Assembly: GCA_039208735.1 (NCBI GenBank)
Contig: JBCCQY010000063.1
Location: 1-44,450 of the forward strand
Length of the DNA: 44,450 bases
Reading direction: 5' to 3'
Origin: Myxococcota bacterium
GTDB lineage: Bacteria > Myxococcota_A > UBA796 > GCA-2862545
The position numbers and the translations under genes are program-made. The number at the start of each line of letters is the position of its first letter. Within the stretch, counting starts at the first letter, position 1. The notes beneath the pieces are model-generated. The model was not told where the DNA came from. It saw nothing but the letters and a program-made list of their open reading frames with translations, and made no database searches. Below, one piece after another: positions 15,237-39,887 of the stretch.

Positions 15237-16363
15237 CGTTCCAACAGTGCGATGAGCGTGGGGTTCCCATGATCGTTCGCGTGATCGAGGGCCGTCCATC
15301 CGTCGGCTCCGCGATGTTGGGCCTCTGCGCCACGAGCGAGGAGGGTGCGACTGGCCGCTTCATGCCCTCGAATCACCGCAACTCGCAAGGGTTGTATGGC
15401 GTCATATCGCCAAATCCGCCGCACCTCATGCACCGCCTTTGGCTCGTCCCCTAAAACGGCCTCGATGCGGCTGGTCAAGTCGTAGGCCGCGGCTTGGAAG
15501 AGATCCAAACGGTGGGAGGCGTGACGAATCAACCACGCTACGGTGTCGGTCTGCCCACCGTGCTCGGCCCAATCGAGCGGCGTCGCCCAAAACGGATTGT
15601 CTCGGTTGTTCAGATCCGCCCCGAGCTTCAGAAGTCGCTCGACCAGGTCGAGTTGGCCCGCCGCACACGCACGATGCAGCAGGGTCCCGTTCCCAACTCC
15701 GATGACGTCGAGGTCCGGAGCCTGGGTCAATAGCCACTCGAACGCATCGGGCTGCCCTATGACATAGGCATGGAGGGTGGCAAGCCCCAGTTCCTGGGCT
15801 GACGGCGGCGTGGTCGCGACCATGGCCTGGAGTCGCTCGAGTTCGCCAAGACCCGCCGCCGCGGGAAGGTCCCAAGGTACTCCCTCGTCGATCAGGAAGC
15901 GAGCCGCCTCGGGGGCATGATTGGCCAATGCGCTCCGCACGGCCGATACGGTGGCGCTAAACGACGCTCCAGCCGCGATGAGGACCTTGGCCAGGGCCCG
16001 TGTCTGACCTGCCGCACTGGCGAGTTGGCTGGTGAACAGTAAGTCGAGCACGGTGTGGCCACGACCGTTCGGTGCGTTCGGATCGGCCCCCTGATCGAGG
16101 AGAGTTCGAGCGATTTGGGGCATGGAGTCTGGCATGGCCAGTTCCCCATCCCCGACGATGCCGTGTTCACGGTGACTCGGCCAAGGATTCCAGGCCACGT
16201 AGTGCAGCAAGGGAGACCCACTGAAATAGTGGTCCGATGCCTCTTCGTTGAAGGTGTGCACCAGACCTGGATGGTCCACCAAGAGCTGTCGAAGATCGTC
16301 GACTCGCCCCCCGTCGATCGCCAGAATTGCTTGTGCGAAAGGGGAGCTTGTTGGTGACGGCAT
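15233..16363 (-). CDS. Ankyrin repeat protein
   Basis: Repeats such as LLDQGADPN, TLLHRA..G..LVERLLKLGADLN, TPLDWA, TALDHA. Start placed at MPSPTSS. Confidence 0.9.
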   Translation of the reverse strand: MPSPTSSPFAQAILAIDGGRVDDLRQLLVDHPGLVHTFNEEASDHYFSGSPLLHYVAWNPWPSHREHGIVGDGELAMPDSMPQIARTLLDQGADPNAPNGRGHTVLDLLFTSQLASAAGQTRALAKVLIAAGASFSATVSAVRSALANHAPEAARFLIDEGVPWDLPAAAGLGELERLQAMVATTPPSAQELGLATLHAYVIGQPDAFEWLLTQAPDLDVIGVGNGTLLHRACAAGQLDLVERLLKLGADLNNRDNPFWATPLDWAEHGGQTDTVAWLIRHASHRLDLFQAAAYDLTSRIEAVLGDEPKAVHEVRRIWRYDAIQPLRVAVIRGHEAASRTLLARGAEAQHRGADGWTALDHANDHGNPTLIALLER

Positions 16364-16538
16364 GCTCAAGACGTAATGCGCGCCGCACACCGCGAACCAC
16401 GAAGCCCCGTCGCACTGCGATGTGTGATCTCCACCCTTGGCCTCCGCGAGGTGCCCGCTCCTCGGCTCAGTTCCAAGCCCTCGCACCCCCTCGCCGGTAC
16501 GCGGCCGTTTCCGTCATCCAGCTCGGGCGTCGGCTCGC

Positions 16539-23102: not shown

Positions 23103-24596
23103 ATGGCCTCAATCCCTCAGTACCCGGGCGTGCACGTCGTTGAGCTGCCGTCCAGCGTGCGCCCCATCGCCGGCACGTCCACGTCGGTCACCGGTTTCAT
23201 CGGACGCGCCCCTCGAGGGCCTACGGATCGCGCCGTTCTCGTCCGAAGTGTGGCAGATTTCGATCGCCACTTTGGGGGCATTTGGTTCGACAGCCTCCTC
23301 GGCTACATGGTGCACCACTACTTTCGCAATGGGGGACGCCAGGCCATCGTGGCTCGTACGGCCCCCGGAGCTACGCCGGCCACCGCAACGGTACCCGCGA
23401 GCGGCACCCCCGCCAACCTCCTGCTCGCCGCCGCCAACCCGGGACCGTGGGGCGACAACCTGCAAGCCCAAGTTGAGGTCACGGACGGTCGATTCACTCT
23501 GGTGATCGAAGAGATCGATCCCTCAAAGGCGACCACCGATCCCGCTCGCATCGTGGCTCGCGAAGCGCACCCAAATTTGGGCGTGGCGACCGACGATGCC
23601 CGTCGGGTCGATCGGGTATTGGGCCAGCACTCCAGGCTCGCACGCGCCACCGCACTTCCTGAGAATGTGCCGTTGGCCACCGGCGCCGCTATCGGCTTCG
23701 GCGGCGCGACCGGCGACAGTGCGCCAGTGCTCGCGGACTACCGGACAGCCCTTCGCCATCTGGCCGAGGCAGGCACGGTCAACCTGCTCTGTCTGGCCCC
23801 GCCCACCCGGACGGGCGACGTGTCGTCGGATGTGTGGGGCGAAGCCGTGACCTGGGCCACGGACCGGCGTGCCATGGTGCTCGTCGACCCGCCCGCGTCG
23901 TGGTCCACCGTCGCTCTGGCCGCAGCACGCACCGGACTCACCAGCATCACGAGCCCCAACGCCACGTTCTACTACCCCCGGGTCAACATCGCGGACCCCC
24001 TCCGCGCTCAACGCCCGCTCGCGATCGGACCAGGAGCCGCCGCGGCCGGGGTGATGGCCCGGACCGATGGCACCCGTGGCGTGTGGAAGGCGCCGGCGGG
24101 CTTCGATGCAGGAGTCAGCGGCATCTCGACCCCCGCCCTCGCCCTGCGCGACAGCGACAGTGAAGTCCTCAATCCAGCCGGCATCAACGCCATTCGAGAG
24201 ATTCCCGGTGCGGGACCGGTGTTGTGGGGCGCGCGAACCGCAGATGGAGCCGACGTTCGCGCCTCGCAATGGAAGTACCTGCCGGTGCGGCGACTTGCGC
24301 TGTTCATCGAGGAGAGCCTTGTGCAGGGCCTTCAATGGGTTGTCTTCGAGCCCAACGACGAGCCGTTGTGGAGCCAGATTCGGCTGAACGTCGGCGCGTT
24401 CATGAACAACCTCTTCCGGCAAGGGGCGTTCCAGGGTGCGACCGCCCGCGAAGCCTATTTCGTCAAATGCGATAGCGAAACGACCCAACCTGGTGATGTC
24501 AACCTCGGTGTCGTCAACGTGCTCGTTGGATTTGCACCGCTGAAGCCGGCCGAGTTCGTTGTTCTCCAGTTCCAACAACTGCTTCAGGCCAGCTAA
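23103..24596 (+). CDS. eCIS contractile tail sheath protein 1 (Afp2/3/4-like)
   Basis: YPGVHVVE, YFRNGG, GVWKAPAG, WGART, WKYLPVRR, WVVFEPNDEPLW, GFAPLKPAEF. Confidence 0.97.
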   Translation: MASIPQYPGVHVVELPSSVRPIAGTSTSVTGFIGRAPRGPTDRAVLVRSVADFDRHFGGIWFDSLLGYMVHHYFRNGGRQAIVARTAPGATPATATVPASGTPANLLLAAANPGPWGDNLQAQVEVTDGRFTLVIEEIDPSKATTDPARIVAREAHPNLGVATDDARRVDRVLGQHSRLARATALPENVPLATGAAIGFGGATGDSAPVLADYRTALRHLAEAGTVNLLCLAPPTRTGDVSSDVWGEAVTWATDRRAMVLVDPPASWSTVALAAARTGLTSITSPNATFYYPRVNIADPLRAQRPLAIGPGAAAAGVMARTDGTRGVWKAPAGFDAGVSGISTPALALRDSDSEVLNPAGINAIREIPGAGPVLWGARTADGADVRASQWKYLPVRRLALFIEESLVQGLQWVVFEPNDEPLWSQIRLNVGAFMNNLFRQGAFQGATAREAYFVKCDSETTQPGDVNLGVVNVLVGFAPLKPAEFVVLQFQQLLQAS

Positions 24597-24611
24597 GGCT
24601 CCGGAGGACCC

Positions 24612-26138
24612 ATGGCGATCCAGCTCGCGCCCGGCGTCTACATCGAGGAGTTGCCCTCGGCAACCCGCAGCATTGCGGGGGTCAGTACGGCGGTATGTCT
24701 GTTTGTCGGGGCGGCCGCCCGTGGCCCCACCGAGCCTACCGCGGTCACATCGTGGACCGAATTTGAACGTCGATTCGGAGGGCTTCTCGCGTCGAGTGAC
24801 ATGACCTATGCGGTGCGGCACTTCTTCGACAATGGAGGGCGCCGCGCAATCATCCGGCGCATTCACAACGGGGCCGTCGCTGCCTCGGCATGGCGGTCCT
24901 TCGACGGCACCAACGTTCGATTCGTCGCAACGAGTCCGGGAGCTTGGGGCAATGCCCTGCGCATCGACGTGGGACTCACCGGGGGCAGTTTCAGCGCAGG
25001 CGACGCTTTCGACCTGACCATTTTGGAGCGCATCGGCCAGGCCAATGTCGTGCGAGAGAAGCACTACGGCCTTTCGCTGGACGAACGGAGCGATCGGTTT
25101 GCGCCAGAGGTGCTGCAGACGGATTCCGAGCGCCTGGCCGTGGAGTTGGGGGGAACTCCACCAGGGGCGGTGACGGCGGTGGACGCCACCACGGTGGAAC
25201 TCGTGGACGGCACCAACGGCAATGCGCTGACGAGTACTCAGTACGACGCCAACCTGATTGCCAACATCGATTTCAACCTACTTGTGGTGCCCTTCCCGCC
25301 CGAGGACGACAGCGAGATCACCGATGCGCAGCGCATTGCGTTTTGGCAAGCGGCGAGCCTTGTGTGCCAAACCAAACGGGCCTTCGCCATCATCGACCCG
25401 CCAGTAGGATGGGGGAGCACCGCTTCGCTTGATGCAGATATTCCCCAGGCAACTGGCCTCTTGGCCGGCCTACGGACCGCGGCGGGCCGAGAGTATGCGG
25501 CGGTGTACTTCCCGCGCGTCCGAGCGCCGGATGCCTTAGCCGAGAACGCCCTCCGTACCTTCGGCCCCTCGGGGATGATCGCAGGCATCTACGCCCGAAC
25601 CGACAGCGAGCGGGGGGTTTTCAAGGCCCCCGCGGGAGTGCAAGCCAGTCTGTCGGGCTCGCTCGCCCTCGATGTGCTGGTCGATGATGCGACCCAAGCC
25701 ACCTACAACCAAGAAGGTATCAACGTCCTGCGCGCATTCCCGTCGTACGGCAGGGTGGTTTGGGGGGCACGCACGATCGAGGGGCTTGATCGGCTCGGCA
25801 GCGAATGGAAGTACATTCCCGTCCGACGCACCGCGAACTTCCTGGAAGAGAGCCTTCGGCGGGGCATTCAATGGGCGGTCTTCGAGCCCAACGACGAGCC
25901 GCTGTGGAGCCAACTCCGGCTCAATGTAGGCGCGTTCATGCACCAACAGTTCCGCGCCGGTGCGTTCGCGGGCAGCACGCCTCGCGAAGCCTATTTCGTC
26001 AAGTGCGACGCCGAGACGACCCCCCAAGAAGACATTGATGCGGGGCGTGTCAACGTCGTCGTCGGCTGGGCGCCCCTGCGTCCCGCCGAGTTCGTCATCA
26101 TTCGGATCCAGCAGATTACCCGCCCCAGTTCTGTGTGA
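24612..26138 (+). CDS. eCIS contractile tail sheath protein 2
   Basis: PGVYIEE, FFDNGG, GVFKAPAG, WGART, WKYIPVRR, FEPNDEPLW, APLRPAEF; GGAGG SD. Confidence 0.97.
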   Translation: MAIQLAPGVYIEELPSATRSIAGVSTAVCLFVGAAARGPTEPTAVTSWTEFERRFGGLLASSDMTYAVRHFFDNGGRRAIIRRIHNGAVAASAWRSFDGTNVRFVATSPGAWGNALRIDVGLTGGSFSAGDAFDLTILERIGQANVVREKHYGLSLDERSDRFAPEVLQTDSERLAVELGGTPPGAVTAVDATTVELVDGTNGNALTSTQYDANLIANIDFNLLVVPFPPEDDSEITDAQRIAFWQAASLVCQTKRAFAIIDPPVGWGSTASLDADIPQATGLLAGLRTAAGREYAAVYFPRVRAPDALAENALRTFGPSGMIAGIYARTDSERGVFKAPAGVQASLSGSLALDVLVDDATQATYNQEGINVLRAFPSYGRVVWGARTIEGLDRLGSEWKYIPVRRTANFLEESLRRGIQWAVFEPNDEPLWSQLRLNVGAFMHQQFRAGAFAGSTPREAYFVKCDAETTPQEDIDAGRVNVVVGWAPLRPAEFVIIRIQQITRPSSV

Positions 26139-26145
26139 GGTCGGC

Positions 26146-26667
26146 ATGGCTCAATTCACCGTCAACCCGTCGCGCTTCGACCCCTACAAAAACTTCAAGT
26201 TCCGCGTTCGTTGGGATGGTCGTTATGTCGCAGGCATTTCCAAGGTCTCGGCTTTGAAACGTACCACCGAGGTGGTCGAGCATCGAGACGGAGGGGACCC
26301 GAGCAGCATTCGCAAATCGCCAGGTCGCACCAAGTACGAGCCCATCACCCTCGAACGCGGCGTGACCCACGATGTCGAGTTCGAAAACTGGGCCCGAAAG
26401 GTCTGGGACATCTCGGGCGGGCTAGGCGCGGAAGTCTCGCTGGCCGATTTTCGGAAGGACATCGTCATCGACCTGTACAACGAGGCCGGTCAGCTGGTGA
26501 TTTCCTACAAGGTCTATCGATGCTGGGTCTCGGAATACACCGCGCTGCCCGAACTCGACGCCGGCGCGAACGCGGTTGCCATCCAATCCTTGAAGCTTGA
26601 GACCGAGGGTTGGGAACGTGACGACTCGGTCCAGGAGCCGGCCGAGCCGACGCTCGCGGCGGGCTGA
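26146..26667 (+). CDS. eCIS tail tube protein (T4 gp19 / Afp1/5-like)
   Basis: DPYKNFKFRV, KSPGRTKYEPITLERG, FRKDI.I.LYNEAGQ, ELDAGANAVAIQSL. GAGG SD before ATG 26146. Confidence 0.97.
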   Translation: MAQFTVNPSRFDPYKNFKFRVRWDGRYVAGISKVSALKRTTEVVEHRDGGDPSSIRKSPGRTKYEPITLERGVTHDVEFENWARKVWDISGGLGAEVSLADFRKDIVIDLYNEAGQLVISYKVYRCWVSEYTALPELDAGANAVAIQSLKLETEGWERDDSVQEPAEPTLAAG

Positions 26668-27365
26668 TGGCCCGGCTCTCGGCGACGGACATCCTCGATG
26701 TGCACGCACGAGGGCATCGTGCGGATTCGCTCGATCGAGCGCTGCTGGTGCTTCGCGCCACAACCGGCTCGACCCTTGACACACTCGCTGCCTTGCCGAT
26801 CGGGCGACGGGATCACGCGCTGTTTACGGCGCATGCCGAGACGTTCGGGGACGCGATTCCCTGCGTCGTGCCCTGCCCCTTCTGCGCCACTCCCCTCGAG
26901 CTGGCGTTGGGAGCGCAACAGCTTCGTCTCGAGCCGCCCGACGAAGGGCCAGGCCCCTTTGCGCTGGCGTTCAACGAGACGACCTTCACCTTCCGGCTTC
27001 CCAACACCCACGACCTTCGTTTTGCCCTGGCCGAGCCGGATGCCGTCGAAGCGCGACTCCTCGAACGGTGTGTGGAGGGACCGGTTCCGGAGGAAGAGGT
27101 TGCCAACGCCATTTCAGCCGAAATGGGCCGACTCGACCCTCAAGCGGATGTCCAACTCGCGCTGACGTGTCCAAGCTGCCATGGCGCCTGGAGCGCGCCC
27201 TTCGACATTGCCGGCTACCTTTGGCGAGAAATCGAAACCGAGGCCGAACGCTTGCTCGACGTCGTCCACGTACTAGCGAAGAGCTACGGTTGGTCCGAGG
27301 CGGCCATTCTCGACATGCCCGCCACCCGACATCGGGCCTACCTCGAACGCCTGGAGGCCTGGTGA
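26667..27365 (+). CDS. eCIS conserved protein (baseplate-hub assembly / tail-chaperone-like)
   Basis: Two CPxC motifs, FRLPN..DL, DPQAD, VHVLA.SYGWSE..IL.MP; follows the tube gene. Confidence 0.8.
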   Translation: MARLSATDILDVHARGHRADSLDRALLVLRATTGSTLDTLAALPIGRRDHALFTAHAETFGDAIPCVVPCPFCATPLELALGAQQLRLEPPDEGPGPFALAFNETTFTFRLPNTHDLRFALAEPDAVEARLLERCVEGPVPEEEVANAISAEMGRLDPQADVQLALTCPSCHGAWSAPFDIAGYLWREIETEAERLLDVVHVLAKSYGWSEAAILDMPATRHRAYLERLEAW

Positions 27366-28069: not shown

Positions 28070-28293
28070 AGCGACATGTCGAACGCATCGTGATCGATCA
28101 GGTGGTCTTCGAGGGGGTGCCCACCGAGCTACAGGGTCGCGTGCTCGTAGCCATGCAGGCCGAGTTGGTTCGCCTCGCCGAAACGGGCCCTCCGGTTCCC
28201 GGCGCCCTGCCAGTGGCGTTGCCATCCCACCCCGATGCAGACGCCATCGGGGTTGCCGCCGCACGTTCGATCTGGTCAGGGCACCACGAGTAG
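28066..28293 (+). CDS. Small eCIS-associated hypothetical protein
   Basis: ATGA coupling to the previous gene; HVERIVIDQVVFEG resembles small eCIS accessory proteins. Confidence 0.6.
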   Translation: MKRHVERIVIDQVVFEGVPTELQGRVLVAMQAELVRLAETGPPVPGALPVALPSHPDADAIGVAAARSIWSGHHE

Positions 28294-29511
28294 CGGACCC
28301 GCGATGGCACCTCCGGTTCGGTCGACCGGACTGTCCACGCCATCGACTTGCAGCCGCACCAACCACGACCCGCTGGCCAACTCGGGCACCGTGAACACGA
28401 GGTCGCCGCCAGGGCCATCGATACGCCACGGACCGGCGTGTGCCCGCGCAGTTCCGCCCCCTTGGGGGGTCAGCAGCAACAGGGGGACTTGGCCATCACC
28501 GAGGGCCGGCTCCACGGGGAGACGGACCTCGATGGTGCCCGAAGCGGGACCTGGCCCAAAGGTCGGGGCAGACGAAAATGATGGCCGAAACAGAATCGAA
28601 GCCGGATTCGACCACAACCAGGGTCGTTCGACGGGGGGCGCCGCTCCATCGAACGTGGCCTCGCGCCCCACTTGAATGGCGATGAGCCCAGCCTCGACCG
28701 CATCGATCGCCAGCACCGCCGACATCGGCACCCGGACGAGGGTTTCCGTCATGTCGGCCGGATCCGGCGTGACGACAATGTCATTGATGCGAACTCGAAG
28801 ATCCGGGCCACCAAAGGACGCTCCCTCCAAGACCAGCGTTCCCCCTACGGTGAGCGGTTCGTTCAAACCCGCTTCAGCCGTGGCCCGCTCGATGAAGGGA
28901 ATGGCCATGGGGCGGACGTGAAGCAGCGGCGTGGTGACCGGAAGGGCGCTGGCGGGACGTTCCTCGGCTTCGATGCGAATGGGCCCCGCCTCGTAGGCGA
29001 GGGTCGGCAACATGGTGACGCCATCGAAGGACGACCACAGGCGGGTGAGGTCATCGAGGTCGATCGACATCGCCGTGAACCGCACCGGCACGCCATCGGC
29101 GGAGAGATCGGACGCCCGCAGCGGATCGGACAGACCAAGCCCTGCGATCAACGTGTCAATCTCGTCCCCTTGAATCAGGGGCTGGGCATGCAGCTGGCTG
29201 GCCACGAGTCCGAGCATGCGATGGGCATCGCGGTCGCCGCTCGCCGACCGAAAGGCGATCAAATACCGCAGCGTCAGGGCCACCACGGGCCGTAAGGCGA
29301 GGCTACCCTCGGTCCGTCGTGTCGGAAGGTCCTCGTTGCGCCGGGCGGGGTCGGGCGTGACCGCAAACAGGAAGATGAACACCCGCGCATCGCTCCCCGG
29401 CGATGGCGCCGAATCCACGGCCATGGCCGAAAGGCTGGCGTCATCAAGCACCCGTTGGATGCGGGACTTCAGGACCTGGGTCACCGTCGCAATGGCGAGC
29501 GCGTTGCTCAC
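28276..29511 (-). CDS. DUF4255 / Pvc16(Afp16)-like sheath terminator with C-terminal Ig-like domains
   Basis: MSNALAIATVT, FLF.V.P..ARRN.DLP, L.L.YL, LWSSF, LAYEA..I.I; IPT-like G..LVLEG; C-terminal LVRLQVDGVDS. AAGGAG SD. Confidence 0.92.
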   Translation of the reverse strand: MSNALAIATVTQVLKSRIQRVLDDASLSAMAVDSAPSPGSDARVFIFLFAVTPDPARRNEDLPTRRTEGSLALRPVVALTLRYLIAFRSASGDRDAHRMLGLVASQLHAQPLIQGDEIDTLIAGLGLSDPLRASDLSADGVPVRFTAMSIDLDDLTRLWSSFDGVTMLPTLAYEAGPIRIEAEERPASALPVTTPLLHVRPMAIPFIERATAEAGLNEPLTVGGTLVLEGASFGGPDLRVRINDIVVTPDPADMTETLVRVPMSAVLAIDAVEAGLIAIQVGREATFDGAAPPVERPWLWSNPASILFRPSFSSAPTFGPGPASGTIEVRLPVEPALGDGQVPLLLLTPQGGGTARAHAGPWRIDGPGGDLVFTVPELASGSWLVRLQVDGVDSPVDRTGGAIAGPLLVVP

Positions 29512-32004: not shown

Positions 32005-33948
32005 ATGACTGCCCACGACGCGTCCATGTCCTCCGTGTTGCCCGCTGCGCTGGCCGAGGTGCGCGCACGGCTCATGGCCCACGCCGCAAACCTCGGTCAT
32101 CTGACCACCGAAGCGGATTCGCCACCCCTAGACGCCGTGACCGAAACGGCCGAGGTGCTCGCCAACCGCCGAACCGCCGCAGGCGGCCATGACCCTGCCT
32201 CCGTATTGGCCCGGGTTTGCGGGCTCACCCCCTTTGAGACCCATGTCGTCTTGCTGCTGGCGGCAAGCCAACTCGACGAGACCAGCCAAGGCCTACTCCG
32301 GGCCATGGGAGGGAGCACCCCCGCCCTCGCCATGGCGATGCTTCCGGCCCCGCACTGGACCGCGTGGACCCCCGAAGGCCCGTTGCGTCGATGGCACCTG
32401 GTCGAGCTTGACGCGTCGAGCGGACTGCTGACCGCTCGGCTCCGCCTCGATGAACGCGTGCTCCTCCACTTGGTCGGGCTTGCCCCGATGGATGCCTCCA
32501 TCCGGCCAAGGGTGTCGCCCATCCACGCCCGCTGGTCCCCCCCCGATCGGTGGTTCGAGGCCGCGACCACGGTGGTCCACGCGTTGCAGTCGGCTCCCCC
32601 GTGGCCCGTCGTGAGCGTCCAGGGGAGCCGAGCGGTGCCCGCCGCGTGGCTGCGATCGGTCTGTGATGACATGGGCCTTGAGCCTTGGCGAATGGCCGCC
32701 ACCGACCTCGTGTTGGGCCCCGAGGAACGATTGGCCTTGGCCCGGCGGTGGGACCGAGAAGCCGCCCTTGCAGGCCGTGCTCTGGTCGTCCAAGCGCACG
32801 ATGCAACCCCCGTCGAAGCAAAGGCCGTCGCAGAGTGGATTGGATGCGTGGCGGGGCCTGTCTTCGTGGTGGGTGAACTCCCCACCGACCCCCTCTCCCG
32901 GTCGGTGGTGCGGGTCACCTTGCCGCGTCTTCGGGCCGGCGACCGGGAGGTGCTCTGGGAGGAGGCTCTTGGGGGCGAGTCGGTTCCGCTTTCGTCGACC
33001 CTCCGGTCGCTGGCCAAGACGTTCCCCTTGGCCCCTGCCGACATCGTTCAGGTGGCGAGCCGCGTTCAAGGCCGACCGGGCGACGACCCCGACGTCGTCG
33101 AGCATCTCTGGCAAGCCTGTCGCACCATCGCCCGACCGAGGCTCGATGGTCTTGCGCGCCACGTGGAGCCCGACGCCACGTGGGACGACCTCATCTTGCC
33201 CGCCGATCAGATCGACGTGATGCGCCTCATCGCCGCGAGAGCGCGCCAGCGGGTCCGCTTGACCGAAGAGTGGGGCTTTGGAGGAGCGTCGACCCGAGGA
33301 CTCGGATTGGCCGCGTTGTTTGCTGGGCCGAGCGGCGTCGGCAAAACGCTGGCGGCTGAGGTCATTGCCAACGATCTTGGGGTGGACCTCTTTCGCGTCG
33401 ACCTGTCGGCAGTGGTGAGCAAATACATTGGTGAGACCGAAAAGAACCTGCGACGCATTTTCGATGCAGCCGAGGATGGGGGGTCTGTGCTGCTCTTCGA
33501 TGAGGCAGATGCGCTATTCGGCAAGCGCTCCGAAGTGCGTGACAGCCACGATCGCTACGCGAACATCGAGGTGAGCTACCTCTTGCAGCGCATGGAGGCC
33601 CATCGAGGGGTAACGATTCTGACCACCAATTTGCGTCAGGCCCTCGATTCCGCCTTTCTACGCCGAATCGCATTCGTGCTCGAGCTAACGACCCCCGACC
33701 AGTCGCGGCGGCTTGCGTTGTGGACCCGAGCGTTCCCCTCCGCGACCCCCACCTCAGGACTCCAACCGGAGCGCCTGGCCCGTCTTGCGGCGACCGGCGC
33801 GGAAATCCGAAGCATTGCCTTGCATGCCGCCGCGATGGCCGCCGACGAAGATGCTCCGGTCACCATGCGCCACCTGGCCCGCGCGGTGCGCATCGAACTT
33901 GGCAAAGCGGGACGTCCGGTTCCCGAAGCAGAGCTGCGAGGCTGGTGA
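32005..33948 (+). CDS. eCIS AAA+ ATPase (Afp15/Pvc15-like)
   Basis: PL.RW.LV winged-helix-like N-terminal region, TWDDLILP, FAGPSGVGKT, VVSKYIGETEKNL, LLFDEADALFGKRSEVRDSHDRYANIEV. Confidence 0.96.
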   Translation: MTAHDASMSSVLPAALAEVRARLMAHAANLGHLTTEADSPPLDAVTETAEVLANRRTAAGGHDPASVLARVCGLTPFETHVVLLLAASQLDETSQGLLRAMGGSTPALAMAMLPAPHWTAWTPEGPLRRWHLVELDASSGLLTARLRLDERVLLHLVGLAPMDASIRPRVSPIHARWSPPDRWFEAATTVVHALQSAPPWPVVSVQGSRAVPAAWLRSVCDDMGLEPWRMAATDLVLGPEERLALARRWDREAALAGRALVVQAHDATPVEAKAVAEWIGCVAGPVFVVGELPTDPLSRSVVRVTLPRLRAGDREVLWEEALGGESVPLSSTLRSLAKTFPLAPADIVQVASRVQGRPGDDPDVVEHLWQACRTIARPRLDGLARHVEPDATWDDLILPADQIDVMRLIAARARQRVRLTEEWGFGGASTRGLGLAALFAGPSGVGKTLAAEVIANDLGVDLFRVDLSAVVSKYIGETEKNLRRIFDAAEDGGSVLLFDEADALFGKRSEVRDSHDRYANIEVSYLLQRMEAHRGVTILTTNLRQALDSAFLRRIAFVLELTTPDQSRRLALWTRAFPSATPTSGLQPERLARLAATGAEIRSIALHAAAMAADEDAPVTMRHLARAVRIELGKAGRPVPEAELRGW

Positions 33949-33961
33949 ACCAGGAACCCGT

Positions 33962-34375
33962 TTACGTCACCTCGACCACGTCGAGCGACGCCAACTCCCC
34001 AAGCTCGGGTTGACCAAAGAAGTCGCCCGCCCCGGGTCCAAGTACGAACTCGACCGTCGCGAGCAACTCGGTCCACGTTGCCTGGCGCTCCCACCGTTCT
34101 TGGTAGAGGCTGTCCGCCTCATGAGCCCACTGCGAAAGGGCCTCCACCAACTCGGGCGCCGAACCTGCCGCCTCGATCGTCGTGCCATCCACACCGGTCA
34201 ACCGCAAGACAACGCTGGGTTCAAGGCCGCGCGTAACCAGCACATCGCGCAACGAAGCAAGCCACGTCGCCGTCGACGGAGGGGCGGGGGCAAGACCCAG
34301 CAAGTGATTCAACAGACGGTTCTTGGGTCCATCGCCGATGACGCCTCGACCGCCGGAAAGATCCCACCACGCCAT
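33962..34375 (-). CDS. Hypothetical 137-aa protein, candidate immunity protein
   Basis: ATG 34375 (MAWWDLSG) with purine-rich SD, 28 nt after the toxin stop on the same strand; small, soluble-looking, acidic C-terminal half. Confidence 0.65.
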   Translation of the reverse strand: MAWWDLSGGRGVIGDGPKNRLLNHLLGLAPAPPSTATWLASLRDVLVTRGLEPSVVLRLTGVDGTTIEAAGSAPELVEALSQWAHEADSLYQERWERQATWTELLATVEFVLGPGAGDFFGQPELGELASLDVVEVT

Positions 34376-34403: not shown

Positions 34404-37400
34404 CTACAGGCAATAACCCGCGGCACGAACGTCAGAATCCTGCCCGATACGCTCGGCCACCGCATCCCGATGACCCTGGCTCGAGATCTCTTCCCTTCGA
34501 TTGATCAGTTCGTTCATCGCAACGTCACGCTCAAAGTCCATGTTGAGTTGTTCGACCCAGGCCGCTTGGTCCTCGGTCGTCATTCCCACGACAATGGCTT
34601 CGATCCGAAAGCCGTCGGAGCCATCAGGGTTCGTGGCACTCTTGAACTCAAAGAAGCGACGCTGCTCTGCGGTCAGGTCGCTCCTGCGCAATTCTCGCCG
34701 AGCCTCGGAATGGTGACCTGAGGTCTCTCGAGTCTCCAGGCCCTGAACGGTGCGGCCAATGTAGACCACACCTGGGAAACGTGGGTTTGTACCGCGGTAG
34801 ACGATCTGCGATCCTCCAAAACCTAAATCGAGTGGCGTGTTGTGCACCAGCACGCCCTCACCAACGAAGAACGTTTGGGCGCCTTCCACCGACAGATTCC
34901 AGGTTGGAGCATCCAGCGCCTCGATGCGCTCATGGGACACAACGGGCCGTTCCTCGCCATTCATGCCCACCAGCCGTGCTCCAACCTCGAGCGACTGCGC
35001 CGCCACCCACCGGTCCCCGACCCGGAAGGGATGGGCTGCAGTGGCCAGAACCTCACCAACCGCGGTGGTCACCCGCCACCAGGCCCGGGTCTTCCCTTGA
35101 TGGACCTGGCTGACGGGACGCGCCACCACCCCTTGGCCTGGTTGCCAGGCCAACACGAGAGATCCCACCTCGATGGAATGGATGGGTACTGGACCATCTG
35201 GCGTATGCACCAACGTCGATTCCTCGAAGCACGGCAGACGTCCCCTCGAATGCGGGTCCAAGAGGGCCTCGAGCCGAGCGACCTCGGATGCCGTCGAACG
35301 GGTCTGTGCGGCAAGGGTATCGAACGGCGAAAGCCGACGACGCCCTCCGCCGGGCGGGGGCTCCGGCGCCGAGACGCGAAGGCGCTGAATCTCCTCCCAA
35401 ATGGCGTCCCTGCGTTCTTGTGCCGCTGCAAAAGCTTCACGATTGGCGGCGCGCTCGCCAGGCCCCGCACGCTCAGAAATGGCCTGTAAGCTTCGCTGTC
35501 GGATCGTCTCAGCGTCGACCGCGGCCTCCCGATGCAGGCGACGCAACTCGGTCAAGTGCTCACCCAGGCGCTGCCGCTGGGCTTCCAGACTTTCGAGCCG
35601 CAGGCGGGCCTCGACCAGTCGCTGTTGGGGCTGATCGTTACCTGTAGTGATCTCAGGCAAGTCCTCCCCAATGAACTCGGGAATTCCATGCACCTGGAGC
35701 GGATCGTCAGGGTCAATCTCCGCTCGCGGAGCTCCGTCCTCTCCGTCGGCGCGGGGCGTCCCGCTCTCCCCGTCAGGACGAGCCGGCCCGTCCTCTCGCG
35801 CGCGCTGCCGAGCCCGATCGCTTGCGCCACTGGTGTCATCGGCGGCTACGAAACCCCGCCCTGGATCGACCGAGTCAATTTGACCCTCGTGGTATGCCAG
35901 CTGTTCCCGAAGACCGGCAATCTCCGCCTCAATTCCCGCAAGTTCAATGGGGTCGAGGGGGTCAGACTGCTCGCCGGCATTGCGGATCCGCTCCTGAATC
36001 TGGTCACGGATGCCCTCAATCTCGGAGAGCATCCGACGCAGTTTGCGAACCTCGAAGCGCGACTCAAAGCCGGCCCGGCCGTATCCTGGCAAGCGGGTGA
36101 AGATCTCGGTAATTCGGCTACCGAGGCGCCGAACCATCCCCAATGGCCCCTCGAATCGACGAAGCGCGTGCAGGGTTTCAAGATGCTGCTGGACACGGCG
36201 ACGACTCGCCCGAGGACCGACTTCGAGCCGCACCTTGCCGCGTCGGTAGCGGACCCGGACGCCATTGCCGAGTTCGGGGTTCTCAACCAGACGGCCTTGG
36301 CCTGACGCATCGCCGAGGAGCGCATCCAGTTCGAGTGCACGGGCGGAGGGGCCTTCGGAAGGCGGACGGCCTTCCGCACCCTCGGGCCGGCGTGCTCCCT
36401 CGTCCCCATCGCGAGGGGCCGTCTCTTCGCGAGGCGTGGTTCCGCCCTCTTCCTGTGGGCGTGGACGGGGAGACTCGTCCCCGGGAACCCGCGCCGGGCC
36501 ATCGGCATCGTCCCGCGGAGCACGGGTGGGCTCGGGACCCGCCGAAAGCAGCTGCATGGCCGAACCCACCGCCATGAGCCCACCCTGCACCGCCCGCAAC
36601 ACGGCCTCCGCCCGACGTGCGGCCCGTTGCCCATCCGAAAGGCTGGGGTCCTCTTCGATCTGCCGCAGCTCCATCTCGAGCGACAGGGGAATGATGATGA
36701 GCTGCATCCCTAGATCGGTGACGGCGTAGATGTGGAGCAAGCCGCTGATGCGCTCGACCCGCGAAGCCCAACGCGGCACGGCACTGGCCGCGGTGACGCC
36801 AACCCCCGCCAAGCCCACGACGCCACCGACGATCGCGGCCACGTCCATGATGGCTTCGAAATCCCACTCGAACCGGTCGTCGCGCGTCCGTCGCGCCAAA
36901 CGGTCGATCGCCACGACCGCGCCGGCCACCCCACCGACCGCACCAATCGCGACCCCCACCGGACCGGTGATCAACAGCCCGGCGAGAGCGGCCGCAGTGG
37001 CAAGGTCGCCCAGCCGTCGCATGACCCGAGCCCGCTGACCCGGGGCCATCCGCATGGCCGAGTCGATCGAGAGGTCGCCAACCGCCTCAATCAGGTTGGG
37101 GGGCAGCCGGATGGCGATGGTTCCCCGGCCGTACTCCGCGTTCTCCCTGAAGTCGACGAACGCATTGCGAATCGCTTCGTTGTGGCCCGCAAGCCCGCTT
37201 CGCGTCGAGACGGATCCGGTGTAGTAGCCCCGCGTGCGCTGGCTCGTGACGTCGGCCAGGACATAGCGACGACGCCCCTCCCGTGACCCCGCCACCTCGC
37301 CCAACAGCAAGATGAACTGCGTCACCATTCCGTTTTCTTCGGATGCCAGCGTCACCTGCGGTCGGTAGTTGGGTCCCGAAATCTGTCCTTCGGCTTGCAG

Positions 37401-39887
37401 CGCGCGTCGCCGCAGGCTTGCAAGTTCGCGATGTTGGCCTTCGAGCTGCTGGATGTAGTCGGTGATCGGAATCTCGAGCAGCGCCAACTGTGCCGCAAGC
37501 AGGCGAACCTCGTCCGAACGCTCCTCTCGAGGGGTGCGGTTGCGTTCCGCCCGCGACAAGGCCCGCGCCACGGCAAGCTTGGACGCGACCAGCTCCATGG
37601 ACTCGAGGGCCCCTTCGCTTGCCGTGGCCTGATCGGCGCGCTCCATCGCATCGATGCGACGCTGCAACGAGGCACGCCGCGCCTCGTCGGTGGTCGAAGC
37701 GAGTTCCTGCTTGAGGTCCGCAATTTCGTTGAGGATGCGGTTGTTCTCAGACTCGGCGCGACCTTGGACGGTTTGGACCTTGATCGGCACGGCCGCAACG
37801 CTGGACGCTCGGATGACCTGGGCATCTTCACCGGCCTCCGGCGTCGCCACGCAACGCACGAGGAACTCGCCTTGCTGGTCCCAGGCGACCCCGCGCTCAT
37901 TTCGAGGGGTGGTCACCGCCGTCACGTAGGAGCTGATGAGCGAGCCCCCAAGGCGAACCACGTTGCTGATGCCCACTACCCCAAGCCACGCCGACCGGGC
38001 CTGCCAGGTCGCGACGACCAGCGGAGCGGGGCCCGATGTCACGTCTTGGAGGTCGGCCTGAGTGTCCTCAACAACATTTTCCCAGCCTTGCTCGAGTTGC
38101 CGAAGCGACTCTTCAGCCGGCGTCGCCTGACGTCCGCTGCCCACCGGTCGCCCACGGACCACCCCCGACCGTTCGGCAGGCCGTACGTTCGAGACGTCGA
38201 GGAGTTCCCAGTAGAAGTTGATGGGTTGGAGACGTGCCGCGACCTGGTCGAGCAGCCGTCCCCCCGCCGGCGCGTAGTCCAGCACCATTTCAAACCGACT
38301 CGTCGCTCCGACCACGGTAATGTCTGGACCAAAGCTTCTGATCCGGGCTGGATACGCGGGTGCGTTCGCCCGTCGCTCGCCCCCCGCGACCTCGGGCTGA
38401 TCGGAACGCATGCCCCCCACAAACCCGGTCTGGTCAACATCGTTGTCAACCCGTTCGCTCTGAGACGGGTCGCGGGATCGGGCCAGGGCGTCCGCGGCTT
38501 CCTGAATCCGACGTTCGAGATTCTCGGTGGCCTCGCCGGTATTGATGGGAACCGAAACCACGCCTCCGTCGACCCAGACGTTGACGAAAAGCTGGCCGTC
38601 GGACTCACGACGCCACACCACCAGACGGTCGGGTCGGGTCTGGCCAGGCGCGGGCTCCCCGTCTCCCTCTTCCTCATCGAGCCTCGTCTCGTCGTCGTCT
38701 CCCCCGCCTCCTGCGCCTTCGCCTTCCTCGCCCTGGCCTCCCGCTCCGGCCGCCTCTTCTTGCTCTTCCTCCGTCTCCGAGTCGGCCTCTTCGGCATCTT
38801 CCTCGGATTCCTCTTCTGCCTCGCGACGCATGCGGGCCTCGATCTCCCGAACCATGCGTTCGGCCCGACGGGTCTGGCGACGCTCTGCTTCGTCGCGACC
38901 TTCCCCTTCGCCGCTGGGCGGTACGGCAAGCACCCACATCGGCGAACGTCGACCTTCGAAGAACGTTCCAAATCGCTCACGTTCGGAAGGATCCAGCCAG
39001 TTTACGACCTGGGCGGAGAGCCGTGCCTCCTCGGTGTTCTCAACCGGCCCAAATCGCTCGAAGACCAGGCCCCTGCCTTGGTCGACCAACCACCACGCGC
39101 CGCTGCTCACGCCAGCGTACCAGCCCGCCTGCCACACGGTGGCCTGATTGCGAAGATCGAATCGGCCGATGCGCCGCCCATTTCGGTCGTAGGCCGTGAG
39201 CTGGCTCCCCAAGACGAAGGTCGTCACCCCCCTTGACCAGGAGGTCCCCTGCGCCGCGGAGATCCGATTTTCCTCCACCAACAGTTCCACGAAATAGCGA
39301 GCGACCTCAGAGGCTTGCCGGCGAATCTCCCGAGTGTTGCCCTGGGGAATGGGCTGACTTAGGATTTGGGGTTCGCCCGCGGTCACCTGCGCGTCTTGGC
39401 GCTGAAGAATGCGCAAGGCCGGGCCCGCCCGTCCGGGCAAGCGACCCTGGACCGAACCGCCACGCCGCACCTCAGCCGCGATCACGTCCGCGTGCCGTTC
39501 GTACGACGCGTGCCCCATCGACCCGACGGGACCATGGCCCAGCGCCTGGAGCACCGCGTGGGTCACCTCGTGCGCCACCGTTGAAAGCGGTGCCTCACGC
39601 GACAACGCCACATCCTGACCGAGGGTGAAGGCATTCGCGTCCACCGCGGCGAGAGCGCGATCCACATGGGGCCCCCGGTGAGCCCGAATGCCCGCCAGAC
39701 GACCCGGCCCAAACGCTGCGCGCAGGCGGGCCTCAAACGGCAAGGGCTCGCCCGCGCCCGCCACCGCGACCTGGGCCAACGCAAATCCCACGGCCGGTTG
39801 CTCATCGGGAACGACCACGGGCTGAACGTCGGGAGTCGGGGAAGGCCGTGCGGTTTCGGGCGGGGACCGGTCCTTGGCCTGGGACAT
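34404..39887 (-). CDS. Polymorphic toxin: DUF4157 + helical/hydrophobic region + HINT + GIY-YIG-like nuclease
   Basis: AHEVTHAVLQ (DUF4157); CFEESTLV...TAAHPF...WNLSVEGAQTFFV...LVHN (HINT, aa 1553-1683); IVY-x11-YIG...R...E...N at the C-terminus. Confidence 0.9.
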   Translation of the reverse strand: MSQAKDRSPPETARPSPTPDVQPVVVPDEQPAVGFALAQVAVAGAGEPLPFEARLRAAFGPGRLAGIRAHRGPHVDRALAAVDANAFTLGQDVALSREAPLSTVAHEVTHAVLQALGHGPVGSMGHASYERHADVIAAEVRRGGSVQGRLPGRAGPALRILQRQDAQVTAGEPQILSQPIPQGNTREIRRQASEVARYFVELLVEENRISAAQGTSWSRGVTTFVLGSQLTAYDRNGRRIGRFDLRNQATVWQAGWYAGVSSGAWWLVDQGRGLVFERFGPVENTEEARLSAQVVNWLDPSERERFGTFFEGRRSPMWVLAVPPSGEGEGRDEAERRQTRRAERMVREIEARMRREAEEESEEDAEEADSETEEEQEEAAGAGGQGEEGEGAGGGGDDDETRLDEEEGDGEPAPGQTRPDRLVVWRRESDGQLFVNVWVDGGVVSVPINTGEATENLERRIQEAADALARSRDPSQSERVDNDVDQTGFVGGMRSDQPEVAGGERRANAPAYPARIRSFGPDITVVGATSRFEMVLDYAPAGGRLLDQVAARLQPINFYWELLDVSNVRPAERSGVVRGRPVGSGRQATPAEESLRQLEQGWENVVEDTQADLQDVTSGPAPLVVATWQARSAWLGVVGISNVVRLGGSLISSYVTAVTTPRNERGVAWDQQGEFLVRCVATPEAGEDAQVIRASSVAAVPIKVQTVQGRAESENNRILNEIADLKQELASTTDEARRASLQRRIDAMERADQATASEGALESMELVASKLAVARALSRAERNRTPREERSDEVRLLAAQLALLEIPITDYIQQLEGQHRELASLRRRALQAEGQISGPNYRPQVTLASEENGMVTQFILLLGEVAGSREGRRRYVLADVTSQRTRGYYTGSVSTRSGLAGHNEAIRNAFVDFRENAEYGRGTIAIRLPPNLIEAVGDLSIDSAMRMAPGQRARVMRRLGDLATAAALAGLLITGPVGVAIGAVGGVAGAVVAIDRLARRTRDDRFEWDFEAIMDVAAIVGGVVGLAGVGVTAASAVPRWASRVERISGLLHIYAVTDLGMQLIIIPLSLEMELRQIEEDPSLSDGQRAARRAEAVLRAVQGGLMAVGSAMQLLSAGPEPTRAPRDDADGPARVPGDESPRPRPQEEGGTTPREETAPRDGDEGARRPEGAEGRPPSEGPSARALELDALLGDASGQGRLVENPELGNGVRVRYRRGKVRLEVGPRASRRRVQQHLETLHALRRFEGPLGMVRRLGSRITEIFTRLPGYGRAGFESRFEVRKLRRMLSEIEGIRDQIQERIRNAGEQSDPLDPIELAGIEAEIAGLREQLAYHEGQIDSVDPGRGFVAADDTSGASDRARQRAREDGPARPDGESGTPRADGEDGAPRAEIDPDDPLQVHGIPEFIGEDLPEITTGNDQPQQRLVEARLRLESLEAQRQRLGEHLTELRRLHREAAVDAETIRQRSLQAISERAGPGERAANREAFAAAQERRDAIWEEIQRLRVSAPEPPPGGGRRRLSPFDTLAAQTRSTASEVARLEALLDPHSRGRLPCFEESTLVHTPDGPVPIHSIEVGSLVLAWQPGQGVVARPVSQVHQGKTRAWWRVTTAVGEVLATAAHPFRVGDRWVAAQSLEVGARLVGMNGEERPVVSHERIEALDAPTWNLSVEGAQTFFVGEGVLVHNTPLDLGFGGSQIVYRGTNPRFPGVVYIGRTVQGLETRETSGHHSEARRELRRSDLTAEQRRFFEFKSATNPDGSDGFRIEAIVVGMTTEDQAAWVEQLNMDFERDVAMNELINRREEISSQGHRDAVAERIGQDSDVRAAGYCL

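Follow-up and report, generated by a model that had tools for sequence, protein, structure and literature searches.

A DUF4157-HINT protein with a predicted GIY-YIG nuclease tail and a candidate immunity partner in an extracellular contractile injection system locus of a Myxococcota bacterium

We analysed a stretch of 44,450 nucleotides from a Myxococcota bacterium (GenBank assembly GCA_039208735.1, contig JBCCQY010000063.1), hereafter the window, which is an entire contig of a 9.4-Mb, 288-contig assembly. It carries one long gene whose 1827-residue product combines a DUF4157 domain, a HINT autoprocessing domain and a C-terminal tail predicted to be a GIY-YIG nuclease; after its predicted role, we refer to this product as the toxin. 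The frame is uninterrupted, and an identical 1827-residue product from the same contig is present in a public protein collection. From the N-terminus, the order is a leader, DUF4157, a carrier of about 1300 residues, HINT and the tail (Table 1). According to Pfam scans of the window (112 open reading frames, ORFs, of at least 130 residues and additional candidate ORFs), the gene is surrounded by the cluster of an extracellular contractile injection system (eCIS), with sheath, tube, Pvc16, AAA ATPase, spike, PAAR and gp25 genes, which is the setting that a first-pass annotation, made by a model from the letters alone, had described.

Table 1. Features of the toxin gene and of its neighbourhood in the window (positions in nucleotides; aa, amino acid residues of the toxin unless a protein length is given)
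Feature	Position	Strand	Basis
Toxin gene (P0001), 1827 aa	34404..39887	-	uninterrupted frame
N-terminal leader, aa 1-45, Pro/Ala/Val-rich	39753..39887	-	composition
DUF4157 / eCIS_core (PF13699), aa 50-115, divergent and shortened	39543..39740	-	Pfam
Conserved carrier, ~aa 44-1350	35838..39758	-	BLASTP
Hydrophobic, Gly-rich segments in carrier, aa 962-1068	36684..37004	-	Kyte-Doolittle scan
Pre-HINT helical, charged segment, aa 1430-1552	35232..35600	-	renewed homology with P0002, aa 1430-1826
PT-HINT autoprocessing domain, aa 1553-1683	34839..35231	-	Pfam, NCBIfam, residues
C-terminal toxin domain, predicted GIY-YIG nuclease, aa 1684-1827 (144 aa)	34407..34838, stop 34404-34406	-	AlphaFold, structure search, conservation
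137-aa ORF (P0022), candidate immunity protein	33962..34375	-	sequence, homologous loci
Two sheath genes (Phage_sheath_1/1C)	23103-26135	+	Pfam
gp19-type tube gene (Phage_T4_gp19) and second tube/baseplate-like gene (T4_baseplate)	with the sheaths, 23103..27362	+	Pfam (5e-45 for Phage_T4_gp19)
Pvc16_N (tail terminator-like)	28276..29511	-	Pfam 1.7e-30
Second DUF4157 protein, 811 aa	29525..31960	-	Pfam eCIS_core 4.6e-16
AAA+ ATPase with winged-helix domain (Afp15/Pvc15-like)	32005..33948	+	Pfam AAA 1.6e-26, WHD 5.4e-13
Two ORFs without family assignment, between toxin and spike		+	
Spike (Phage_base_V), PAAR-like ORF, gp25 and further baseplate gene cut by the contig end	42102..44450	+	Pfam

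The HINT domain of the toxin carries a full set of catalytic residues. PT-HINT (PF07591) matched residues 1559-1683 at 38.3 bits (cut-off 27.7), Hint_2 matched more weakly from residue 1552 onwards, and the NCBIfam model intein_Cterm matched residues 1664-1684 at 17.4 bits (cut-off 15.6). The residues concerned are Cys1553, Thr1616-Ala-Ala-His1619 and a His1682-Asn1683 pair that directly abuts the tail, and the HINT domain stands where the first-pass annotation had placed it. A profile of the tail family, searched against PDB sequences, matched the bacterial intein-like (BIL) domain 2lwy in its HINT part (E 6e-23). The pre-HINT segment co-travels with HINT and tail.

We located a HINT end directly before the tail in 93 of 98 tail-bearing proteins, and it terminates in His-Asn in 92 of these 93. 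The residue after the Asn (+1) is nucleophilic (Thr or Ser) in 11 of the 93 and a non-nucleophile in the other 82; it is Thr1684 in the toxin and Gln in P0002, its closest relative. Because His-Asn is kept so widely and a nucleophile at +1 is found so seldom, C-terminal cleavage by Asn cyclization fits the family better than splicing does, and we infer from these residues that HINT cleavage takes place in the toxin itself. True intein splicing as the conserved reaction, a candidate prompted by the window's Thr at +1, was rejected in view of the 82 non-nucleophilic relatives and of the lack of a C-extein past the toxin domain.

The tail contains the pattern in which the first-pass annotation had recognized a GIY-YIG catalytic set: IVY (Tyr1697), 11 residues and then YIG (1709-1711), followed by Arg1720 nine residues past Gly1711, Glu1779 within AAWVEQ and Asn1796 within LINR. 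The tail also has His1725 and Cys1826. In tail numbering (add 1683 to obtain protein numbering), Tyr14, Tyr26, Gly28 and His42 are present in 80 of 80 full-length tails, Glu96 in 79, and Arg37 and Asn113 in 78 each; the window's tail retains every conserved residue of the catalytic pattern. Since these positions are kept across 80 relatives, the motif is not a chance match. At the level of families, PF01541 was matched by 12 of 26 sequences (the tail and 25 short family members; best E 2e-4), T5orf172 by three and GIY_YIG_2 by one, all at E 5 or lower, and the neighbours of the tail in the ESM Atlas fall in clusters annotated Tox-URI2 (42% of members) and GIY-YIG (32%).

A structural model of the tail points to the same superfamily. 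A single-sequence AlphaFold run was unusable (predicted local distance difference test, pLDDT, 55), and the alignment of the same 26 sequences gave a model with pLDDT 95.1 and a predicted template modelling score of 0.87. Its elements are a strand (9-17), a strand (24-30), a helix (34-49), a helix (57-65), a strand (78-86), a helix (89-107) and a helical end, so that the modelled core runs beta-beta-alpha-alpha-beta-alpha, the order of the GIY-YIG core fold. When the model was compared with 48,161 chains by VIA-align, I-TevI was the best match (Z 8.2, root-mean-square deviation 3.1, 89 of 92 residues), followed by PD-T4-3 (Z 6.3), the N-terminal domain of AtGRXS16 (6.2), which we take to have a GIY-YIG fold, T4 EndoII (5.5), HIGLE (4.7) and UvrC (4.7), with Slx1 (4.3 and 4.2) and Eco29kI (3.2) lower. 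Nine of the top ten rows are GIY-YIG proteins, the exception being a penicillin-binding protein at rank 9. Foldseek, too, put the catalytic domain of I-TevI at the head of its PDB list (E 0.26).

Several results weigh against this assignment. In a direct scan, the tail matched no Pfam family of the GIY-YIG clan, nor Tox-URI2 (PF15653), even at E 10; the family profile searched against the PDB matched HINT and intein chains only, with no GIY-YIG chain among them and the tail part unmatched; and phmmer of the tail against PDB sequences returned nothing relevant. A comparison by hhalign of the 80-tail alignment with 12 low-diversity UvrC GIY-YIG domains from related genomes aligned the VYIG..R stretch only, at a probability of 1.2%. 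Foldseek gave no tail match in the PDB at E 0.001 or better, and a Z of 8.2 is middling by VIA-align's own scale. The fold call carries weight because the top of the VIA-align list is one superfamily, and not because of a Z of about 8 by itself. The data support the prediction that the tail is a GIY-YIG-fold domain with a conserved catalytic set, and hence a predicted nuclease. The GIY-YIG call of the first-pass annotation, which had proposed modelling residues 1684-1827 as a check, is upheld by the resulting fold and its best matches, by conservation in the family and by the weak PF01541 matches of relatives; a direct Pfam match of the tail did not materialize.

The tail family has features of its own. 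A Cys one or two residues from the C-terminus is invariant ('GYC', 80/80; Cys1826 and its neighbours, 34407-34412 in the window), and the invariant His42 and Phe65, like this Cys, lie outside the usual GIY-YIG set. Between the second helix and the third strand, the window's tail carries an eight-residue insertion, NPDGSDGF (tail residues 70-77, 34608-34631), that is absent in 76-79 of the 80 relatives. The G+C content is 58.1% in the tail region versus 66.6% in the carrier (63% versus 74% at third codon positions), a weak hint that the tail may have had a separate history.

The combination of DUF4157, HINT and tail recurs well beyond the window. An exhaustive HMMER search of 1.84 billion representatives at E 0.001 or lower found 97 other tail-bearing proteins (representative clusters), 44 of them at 1e-10 or lower, and the tail ends at most two residues from the C-terminus in 83 of the 98 proteins. 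By a Pfam tally at E 1e-4, eCIS_core and a HINT family occur together in 43 of the 97 hits, HINT alone in 42 (35 of them shorter than 900 residues, many probably fragments) and no domain in 11 (ten shorter than 200 residues), while P0101 is an off-target repeat protein. The same tally found no Rhs, LXG or other classical trafficking domain in the 97 proteins; two carry annexin repeats. Among the hits of at least 900 residues, DUF4157 and HINT are joined in 43 of 52, and we therefore regard DUF4157, long carrier, PT-HINT and tail as the standard form of the family. The architecture is thus recurrent and not unique, being found in 43 representative clusters and widely among bacteria of environmental origin. 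Judging from the profile searches, the tail is a distinct family that is absent from Pfam.

The first-pass annotation knew of no characterized example of this architecture. Full-text literature searches (DUF4157 with HINT; PT-HINT with contractile injection) likewise found neither a description of the combination nor a characterized example, but the 43 clusters show that the architecture is not rare. Among longer proteins, word-based searching for the tail recovered nothing beyond the query. In the bacterium's own genome, tblastn found no second copy of tail, immunity ORF, HINT or carrier at E 0.01, and the tail was not found in those of 400 further genomes of the phylum that were searched with a single-protein query. 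Outside the window, the same genome encodes a 986-residue frame (contig C143:7302-10262, plus strand) with DUF4157, a Gly-rich hydrophobic stretch and a canonical C-terminal GIY-YIG domain that Pfam detects, and without HINT; consequently, HINT is optional for such a payload.

The toxin varies in modules, as the polymorphic-toxin logic of the first-pass annotation implied. A word-based BLASTP search with the whole protein gave 20 relatives, of which 15, including named Corallococcus and Pyxidicoccus proteins, align at 38-42% identity from about residues 27-67 to residues 1349-1370; this carrier is common to DUF4157 proteins of about 1700 residues from Corallococcus, Pyxidicoccus and metagenomes. 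Past residue ~1350 the ends diverge. Twelve relatives share a different C-terminal region of about 360 residues and P0003 and P0015 have other ends, which makes 14 relatives with other C-termini, and the metagenomic P0002 (2131 residues) is the only carrier relative with HINT and tail (39% identity from residue 1430 to the end). Among the 97 tail-bearing proteins, a long carrier stretch (41% over ~730 residues) is shared by P0109 only, and short or weak carrier pieces by 15 others. On these alignments the toxin behaves like a polymorphic toxin: its carrier bears varied C-termini, its tail sits on varied carriers and a conserved small gene lies downstream.

That small gene is a 137-residue ORF starting 28 nt past the toxin stop and preceded by a ribosome-binding-like AAGGGGG site; it is also called as a gene in a public collection. 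It has no Pfam match, a word-based search returned the query alone, and the ESM Atlas gave no usable feature match, its model being so poor (pLDDT 0.42) that the structure rows were ignored. Relatives came from a scan of one genome per species with the HINT-tail module (an alignment that includes the HINT end), which gave 11 loci: three in Acidobacteriota and one each in Amycolatopsis, Actinoplanes, Gaiellaceae, Solirubrobacteraceae, Longimicrobium, a 'delta proteobacterium' metagenome-assembled genome (MAG), Burkholderiales and Planctomycetota. In nine of the 11, the toxin is immediately followed by an ORF that opens with M-[SG]-W-[WF] and can be aligned to the entire 137-residue ORF at 22-28% identity. 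The loci that lack such an ORF are L010, where the toxin frame continues beyond the tail, and L012.

We found that Met1, Trp3, Gly14, Asp15, Tyr91, Arg97 and Glu103 are invariant in this downstream family, whose pattern reads 'MSWWD...GD.PAD'. A hidden Markov model built from the nine foreign members and run against 92,161 stop-to-stop ORFs of at least 60 residues from the bacterium's genome recovered the 137-residue ORF alone (E 6.6e-16), and the ten members have no Pfam family in common. From position and conservation, the 137-residue ORF is likely the cognate immunity protein of the toxin, and by the same comparisons these candidate immunity proteins form a new conserved family that is uncatalogued and absent from Pfam.

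The N-terminal part of the toxin links it to the injection system. In line with the DUF4157 domain that the first-pass annotation had read around HEVTH (residues 106-110), eCIS_core scored 42.4 bits (cut-off 22) in the Pfam scan and 47.4 bits in a genome scan. The zinc motif reads HEVTHAVLQ in the toxin versus HELAHVVQQ (HELAHVxQQ) in relatives, with the Gln shifted by one residue and the preceding segment shortened, and a candidate for the Glu of the HExxHxxQ...E signature lies at about residue 130. In AlgoCIS, the available part of a preprint describes DUF4157 cargo (Cgo1 and Cgo2) within the tube lumen, where a leader that is disordered and N-terminal, together with an AAA+ ATPase, brings it (bioRxiv 10.64898/2026.05.27.728243). 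By analogy, the leader of the toxin may be the counterpart of this loading sequence.

The linkers and hydrophobic segments that had been noted in the first pass were also located. An acidic stretch lies at about residues 355-412 and a Pro/Arg/Glu-rich stretch at about 1117-1185, and a Kyte-Doolittle scan delimits three hydrophobic segments (residues 962-998, 1010-1038 and 1050-1068) that are kept in the consensus of the carrier alignment and have a weak Pfam match to C19orf12. These segments may be a membrane-insertion or translocation module. They are Gly-zipper-like, and P0042 and P0081 match DUF6861 in a comparable mid-protein region.

The toxin gene is placed between the AAA+ ATPase gene and the spike and baseplate genes, both in the window and in the Amycolatopsis locus (L003). 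The AAA+ ATPase gene is convergent with that of the immunity candidate, and its product is likely the cargo loader. The C-terminal part of the 811-residue DUF4157 protein matches no Pfam family; this protein adjoins Pvc16_N, shares the toxin's strand and may be a second cargo. On the 5' side of the eCIS cluster (15233-16486 and 3-716, both on the minus strand) the window encodes an ankyrin-repeat protein, a BlaR1-like sensor, a MoxR/DUF58/vWA set and a Ser/Thr kinase fragment.

In the related loci, Pfam was applied to 94 ORFs from nine loci (L002 and L008 excluded). DUF4157 lies on the toxin frame or an adjoining frame in six of the nine. In L003, Pvc16_N, an AAA protein with winged helix and a spike gene stand around the toxin; in L006, Pvc16_N, sheath and tube genes are near it; in L009, an AAA gene with winged helix is beside it; and in L004, an AAA gene and two more DUF4157 genes are nearby. 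L004 (a Pyrinomonadaceae MAG) also shows, after the toxin-immunity pair, a DUF4157 protein whose C-terminal end is a GH-E (HNH) nuclease, with a 162-residue ankyrin-repeat ORF next in line (L004:9112-14226), an arrangement that looks like an array of eCIS toxin cassettes. In the MAG loci L007, L009 and L002, the DUF4157 and HINT-tail parts occupy different overlapping frames, which may be frameshifts, assembly errors or truly split genes.

With moderate confidence, we propose that the toxin is an eCIS cargo whose GIY-YIG DNase tip is released by the HINT domain and countered by a cognate 137-residue immunity protein; loading, cleavage, DNase activity and protection are all read from sequence and from likeness to known systems. 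The N-terminal leader, with or without DUF4157, would act with the neighbouring AAA+ ATPase to load the toxin into the tube lumen, as in AlgoCIS and the Photorhabdus virulence cassette (PVC). After firing, cyclization of Asn1683 would free the tail, and thiol chemistry at Cys1553 may also cut on the N-terminal side. The free tail would then degrade the DNA of the target cell, with the hydrophobic, Gly-rich part of the carrier perhaps aiding membrane crossing, and the immunity protein would protect the producer. Because the immunity gene has been kept, the targets would include bacteria related to the producer.

An alternative that we consider unlikely is that the toxin has its immunity partner and is not fired by the particle at all, being membrane-associated or otherwise exported, or acting inside the producer in lysis or in regulated cell death at particle release. 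Streptomyces contractile injection systems act intracellularly in regulated cell death. The three hydrophobic, Gly-rich segments in a conserved carrier would suit such a role, and a number of observations pull away from a particle-fired cargo: the toxin gene is on the strand opposite the structural genes; its DUF4157 is degenerate (42 bits versus about 100 bits in relatives, with the canonical QQ lost); 8 of the 52 long tail-bearing proteins have no DUF4157 and no HExxH in their first 600 residues; Pfam found neither DUF4157 nor eCIS genes in view in L010, L011 and L012; and L012 lies in a row of arginine-biosynthesis genes. Moreover, the portion of the preprint at hand reports that DUF4157 is dispensable for loading in AlgoCIS (bioRxiv 10.64898/2026.05.27.728243). 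Against this alternative, the eCIS marker domain is present in 43 of the 52 long family members, the gene sits between loader and spike genes in the window and in L003, and a partly available study describes CIS-dependent secretion of DUF4157 proteins, in Halogeometricum, together with protective downstream partners (PMC11566945). The retained immunity gene argues against a producer-killing role in particular. As an observation apart, the Planctomycetota MAG locus (L012:4230-8783) encodes a 1518-residue PT-HINT protein with a divergent tail, no DUF4157 and no immunity homologue.

We give slightly less credence to an eCIS cargo from which HINT frees no toxin once inside the target. In that case HINT would either cut already in the producer, ahead of loading or in the course of it, so that no more than a fragment is packed, or serve as a structural spacer in a protein that acts uncleaved. 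HINT chemistry is independent of cofactors and might start at any moment, the 1827 residues of the toxin exceed the 1228 of Cgo2 as given in the available preprint text (bioRxiv 10.64898/2026.05.27.728243), and the hits frequently include short ORFs of HINT and tail (170-550 residues), many of them possibly fragments. However, the leader lies 1600 residues from the tail, so a cut before loading would part the warhead from its address, and the family as a whole retains every catalytic residue of HINT.

It is improbable, in our estimate, that the tail has the GIY-YIG fold and is no general DNase, cutting RNA instead, cutting specific sites only or merely binding nucleic acid. The missing direct Pfam match, the atypical invariant residues (C-terminal Cys, His42, Phe65) and the moderate Z of the structural matches would allow for it; on the other side stand the entire GIY-YIG catalytic set, kept in 78-80 of 80 members, and the linkage of an immunity gene to the tail, as expected for a dangerous enzyme. 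Finally, HINT and tail might be no weapon and instead a selfish homing cassette of the intein kind, moving from one DUF4157 gene to another. This reading would account for I-TevI, a homing endonuclease, as the nearest solved fold, for the unrelated carriers and for the G+C difference between tail and carrier, but it is very improbable: the module is terminal, has no C-extein and carries a non-nucleophile after Asn in 82 of 93 members, so that it cannot leave by splicing in the manner of an intein, and a dedicated gene of protective type co-travels downstream.

The proposed toxin bears on how these particles are used. To our knowledge, the contents and targets of most eCIS particles are largely unknown, and an interbacterial role has long been suspected with few toxin-immunity pairs demonstrated. 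In the preferred reading of the toxin as a HINT-released eCIS cargo, the locus is a compact package of an address domain, a self-cleaving joint with all its catalytic residues, a predicted DNase of 16 kDa and a candidate antidote that is itself conserved. That the immunity gene has been retained suggests bacteria as targets, a point relevant to whether eCIS act in bacterial competition. We also advance, as a tentative proposal that may well prove wrong, that a mobile warhead cassette dedicated to eCIS is made up of HINT, GIY-YIG tail and 'MSWWD' immunity gene, and that eCIS use it to fire self-cleaving DNases at rival bacteria while kin are protected by immunity. If so, this cassette would be spread over Acidobacteriota, Actinomycetota, Gemmatimonadota, Myxococcota-like and other soil lineages, and interbacterial warfare would be waged by phage-tail machines, free-floating or cell-bound.

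Zhang et al. 2012 named the PVC-metallopeptidase (DUF4157), likened its toxins to polymorphic toxins and included URI (GIY-YIG) families among the toxins with HINT; in the sections available, HINT is stated to be 'never' found with the PVC secretion system, and the two peptidases to be 'mutually exclusive' (PMC3482391). The pairing of DUF4157 with PT-HINT in 43 representative clusters corrects this generalization, and the proposed cassette, if true, would overturn the rule by which HINT processing is excluded from PVC/eCIS toxins. The tail and immunity families could annotate hundreds of metagenomic genes, and release of the payload by HINT lends itself to engineered cargo meant to come away from its loading sequence.

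Among known systems, the toxin is close to the DUF4157 toxins of eCIS. An N-terminal DUF4157, linkers of more than 1000 residues and C-terminal toxins are a known eCIS pattern in the accessible text of Geller et al. 2021, according to whose domain table (supplement file 4) PT-HINT occurs four times in the operons of eCIS, within one phylum and with a false discovery rate of 0.066, and GIY-YIG occurs twice (PMC8213781). The main text of Danov et al. 2024 mentions neither HINT nor GIY-YIG (PMC11297309). As far as the excerpts of Geller et al. and Zhang et al. go, the toxin shares with their proteins the N-terminal DUF4157, the very long linker, the variable C-terminal toxin and the eCIS location, and it differs in having a PT-HINT inserted directly before the toxin domain. 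Likewise, AlgoCIS cargo has a disordered N-terminal leader, DUF4157 and a large C-terminal part; the portion available mentions neither HINT nor an identified nuclease tip for it, and the toxin is about 600 residues longer than Cgo2 (1228 residues).

The C-terminal end of the toxin resembles Tox-URI1 and Tox-URI2, which in the quoted descriptions of Zhang et al. 2012 also have HINT directly before a C-terminal GIY-YIG-fold nuclease and an immunity gene downstream. Compared by quoted signature, the tail has the Y, YxG, R and N of Tox-URI1 (Y, YxG, R, [RK]xxE, N), whereas its Glu lies in A-W-V-E (D-Y-L-E in the family, 'LEQxN') and not in [RK]xxE; it has YIG and not the KxG of Tox-URI2 (Y, KxG, [EQ]). 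In those descriptions, both families are listed with export by type II, type V and type VI secretion systems and TcdB/TcaC and with Rhs or filamentous-haemagglutinin repeats, and not with PVC/eCIS (PMC3482391).

The HINT domains of the family are like BIL domains (PDB 2lwy) in their N-terminal Cys and C-terminal His-Asn, and unlike them in sitting at the boundary between carrier and toxin, where a non-nucleophilic residue mostly follows. The modelled tail has the fold of I-TevI (PDB 1ln0) and other GIY-YIG nucleases (Z 8.2 to 3.2), and its Tyr, Tyr-x-Gly, Arg, His, Glu and Asn follow one another as they do there, at matching distances; identity is 12-21%, with no significant sequence-profile link for the window's tail. 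What sets it apart from I-TevI-type nucleases is an additional helical portion towards the C-terminus (about residues 117-144), which closes with the invariant Cys. Unlike the GIY-YIG enzymes of repair or homing, the tail is predicted to be a toxin module.

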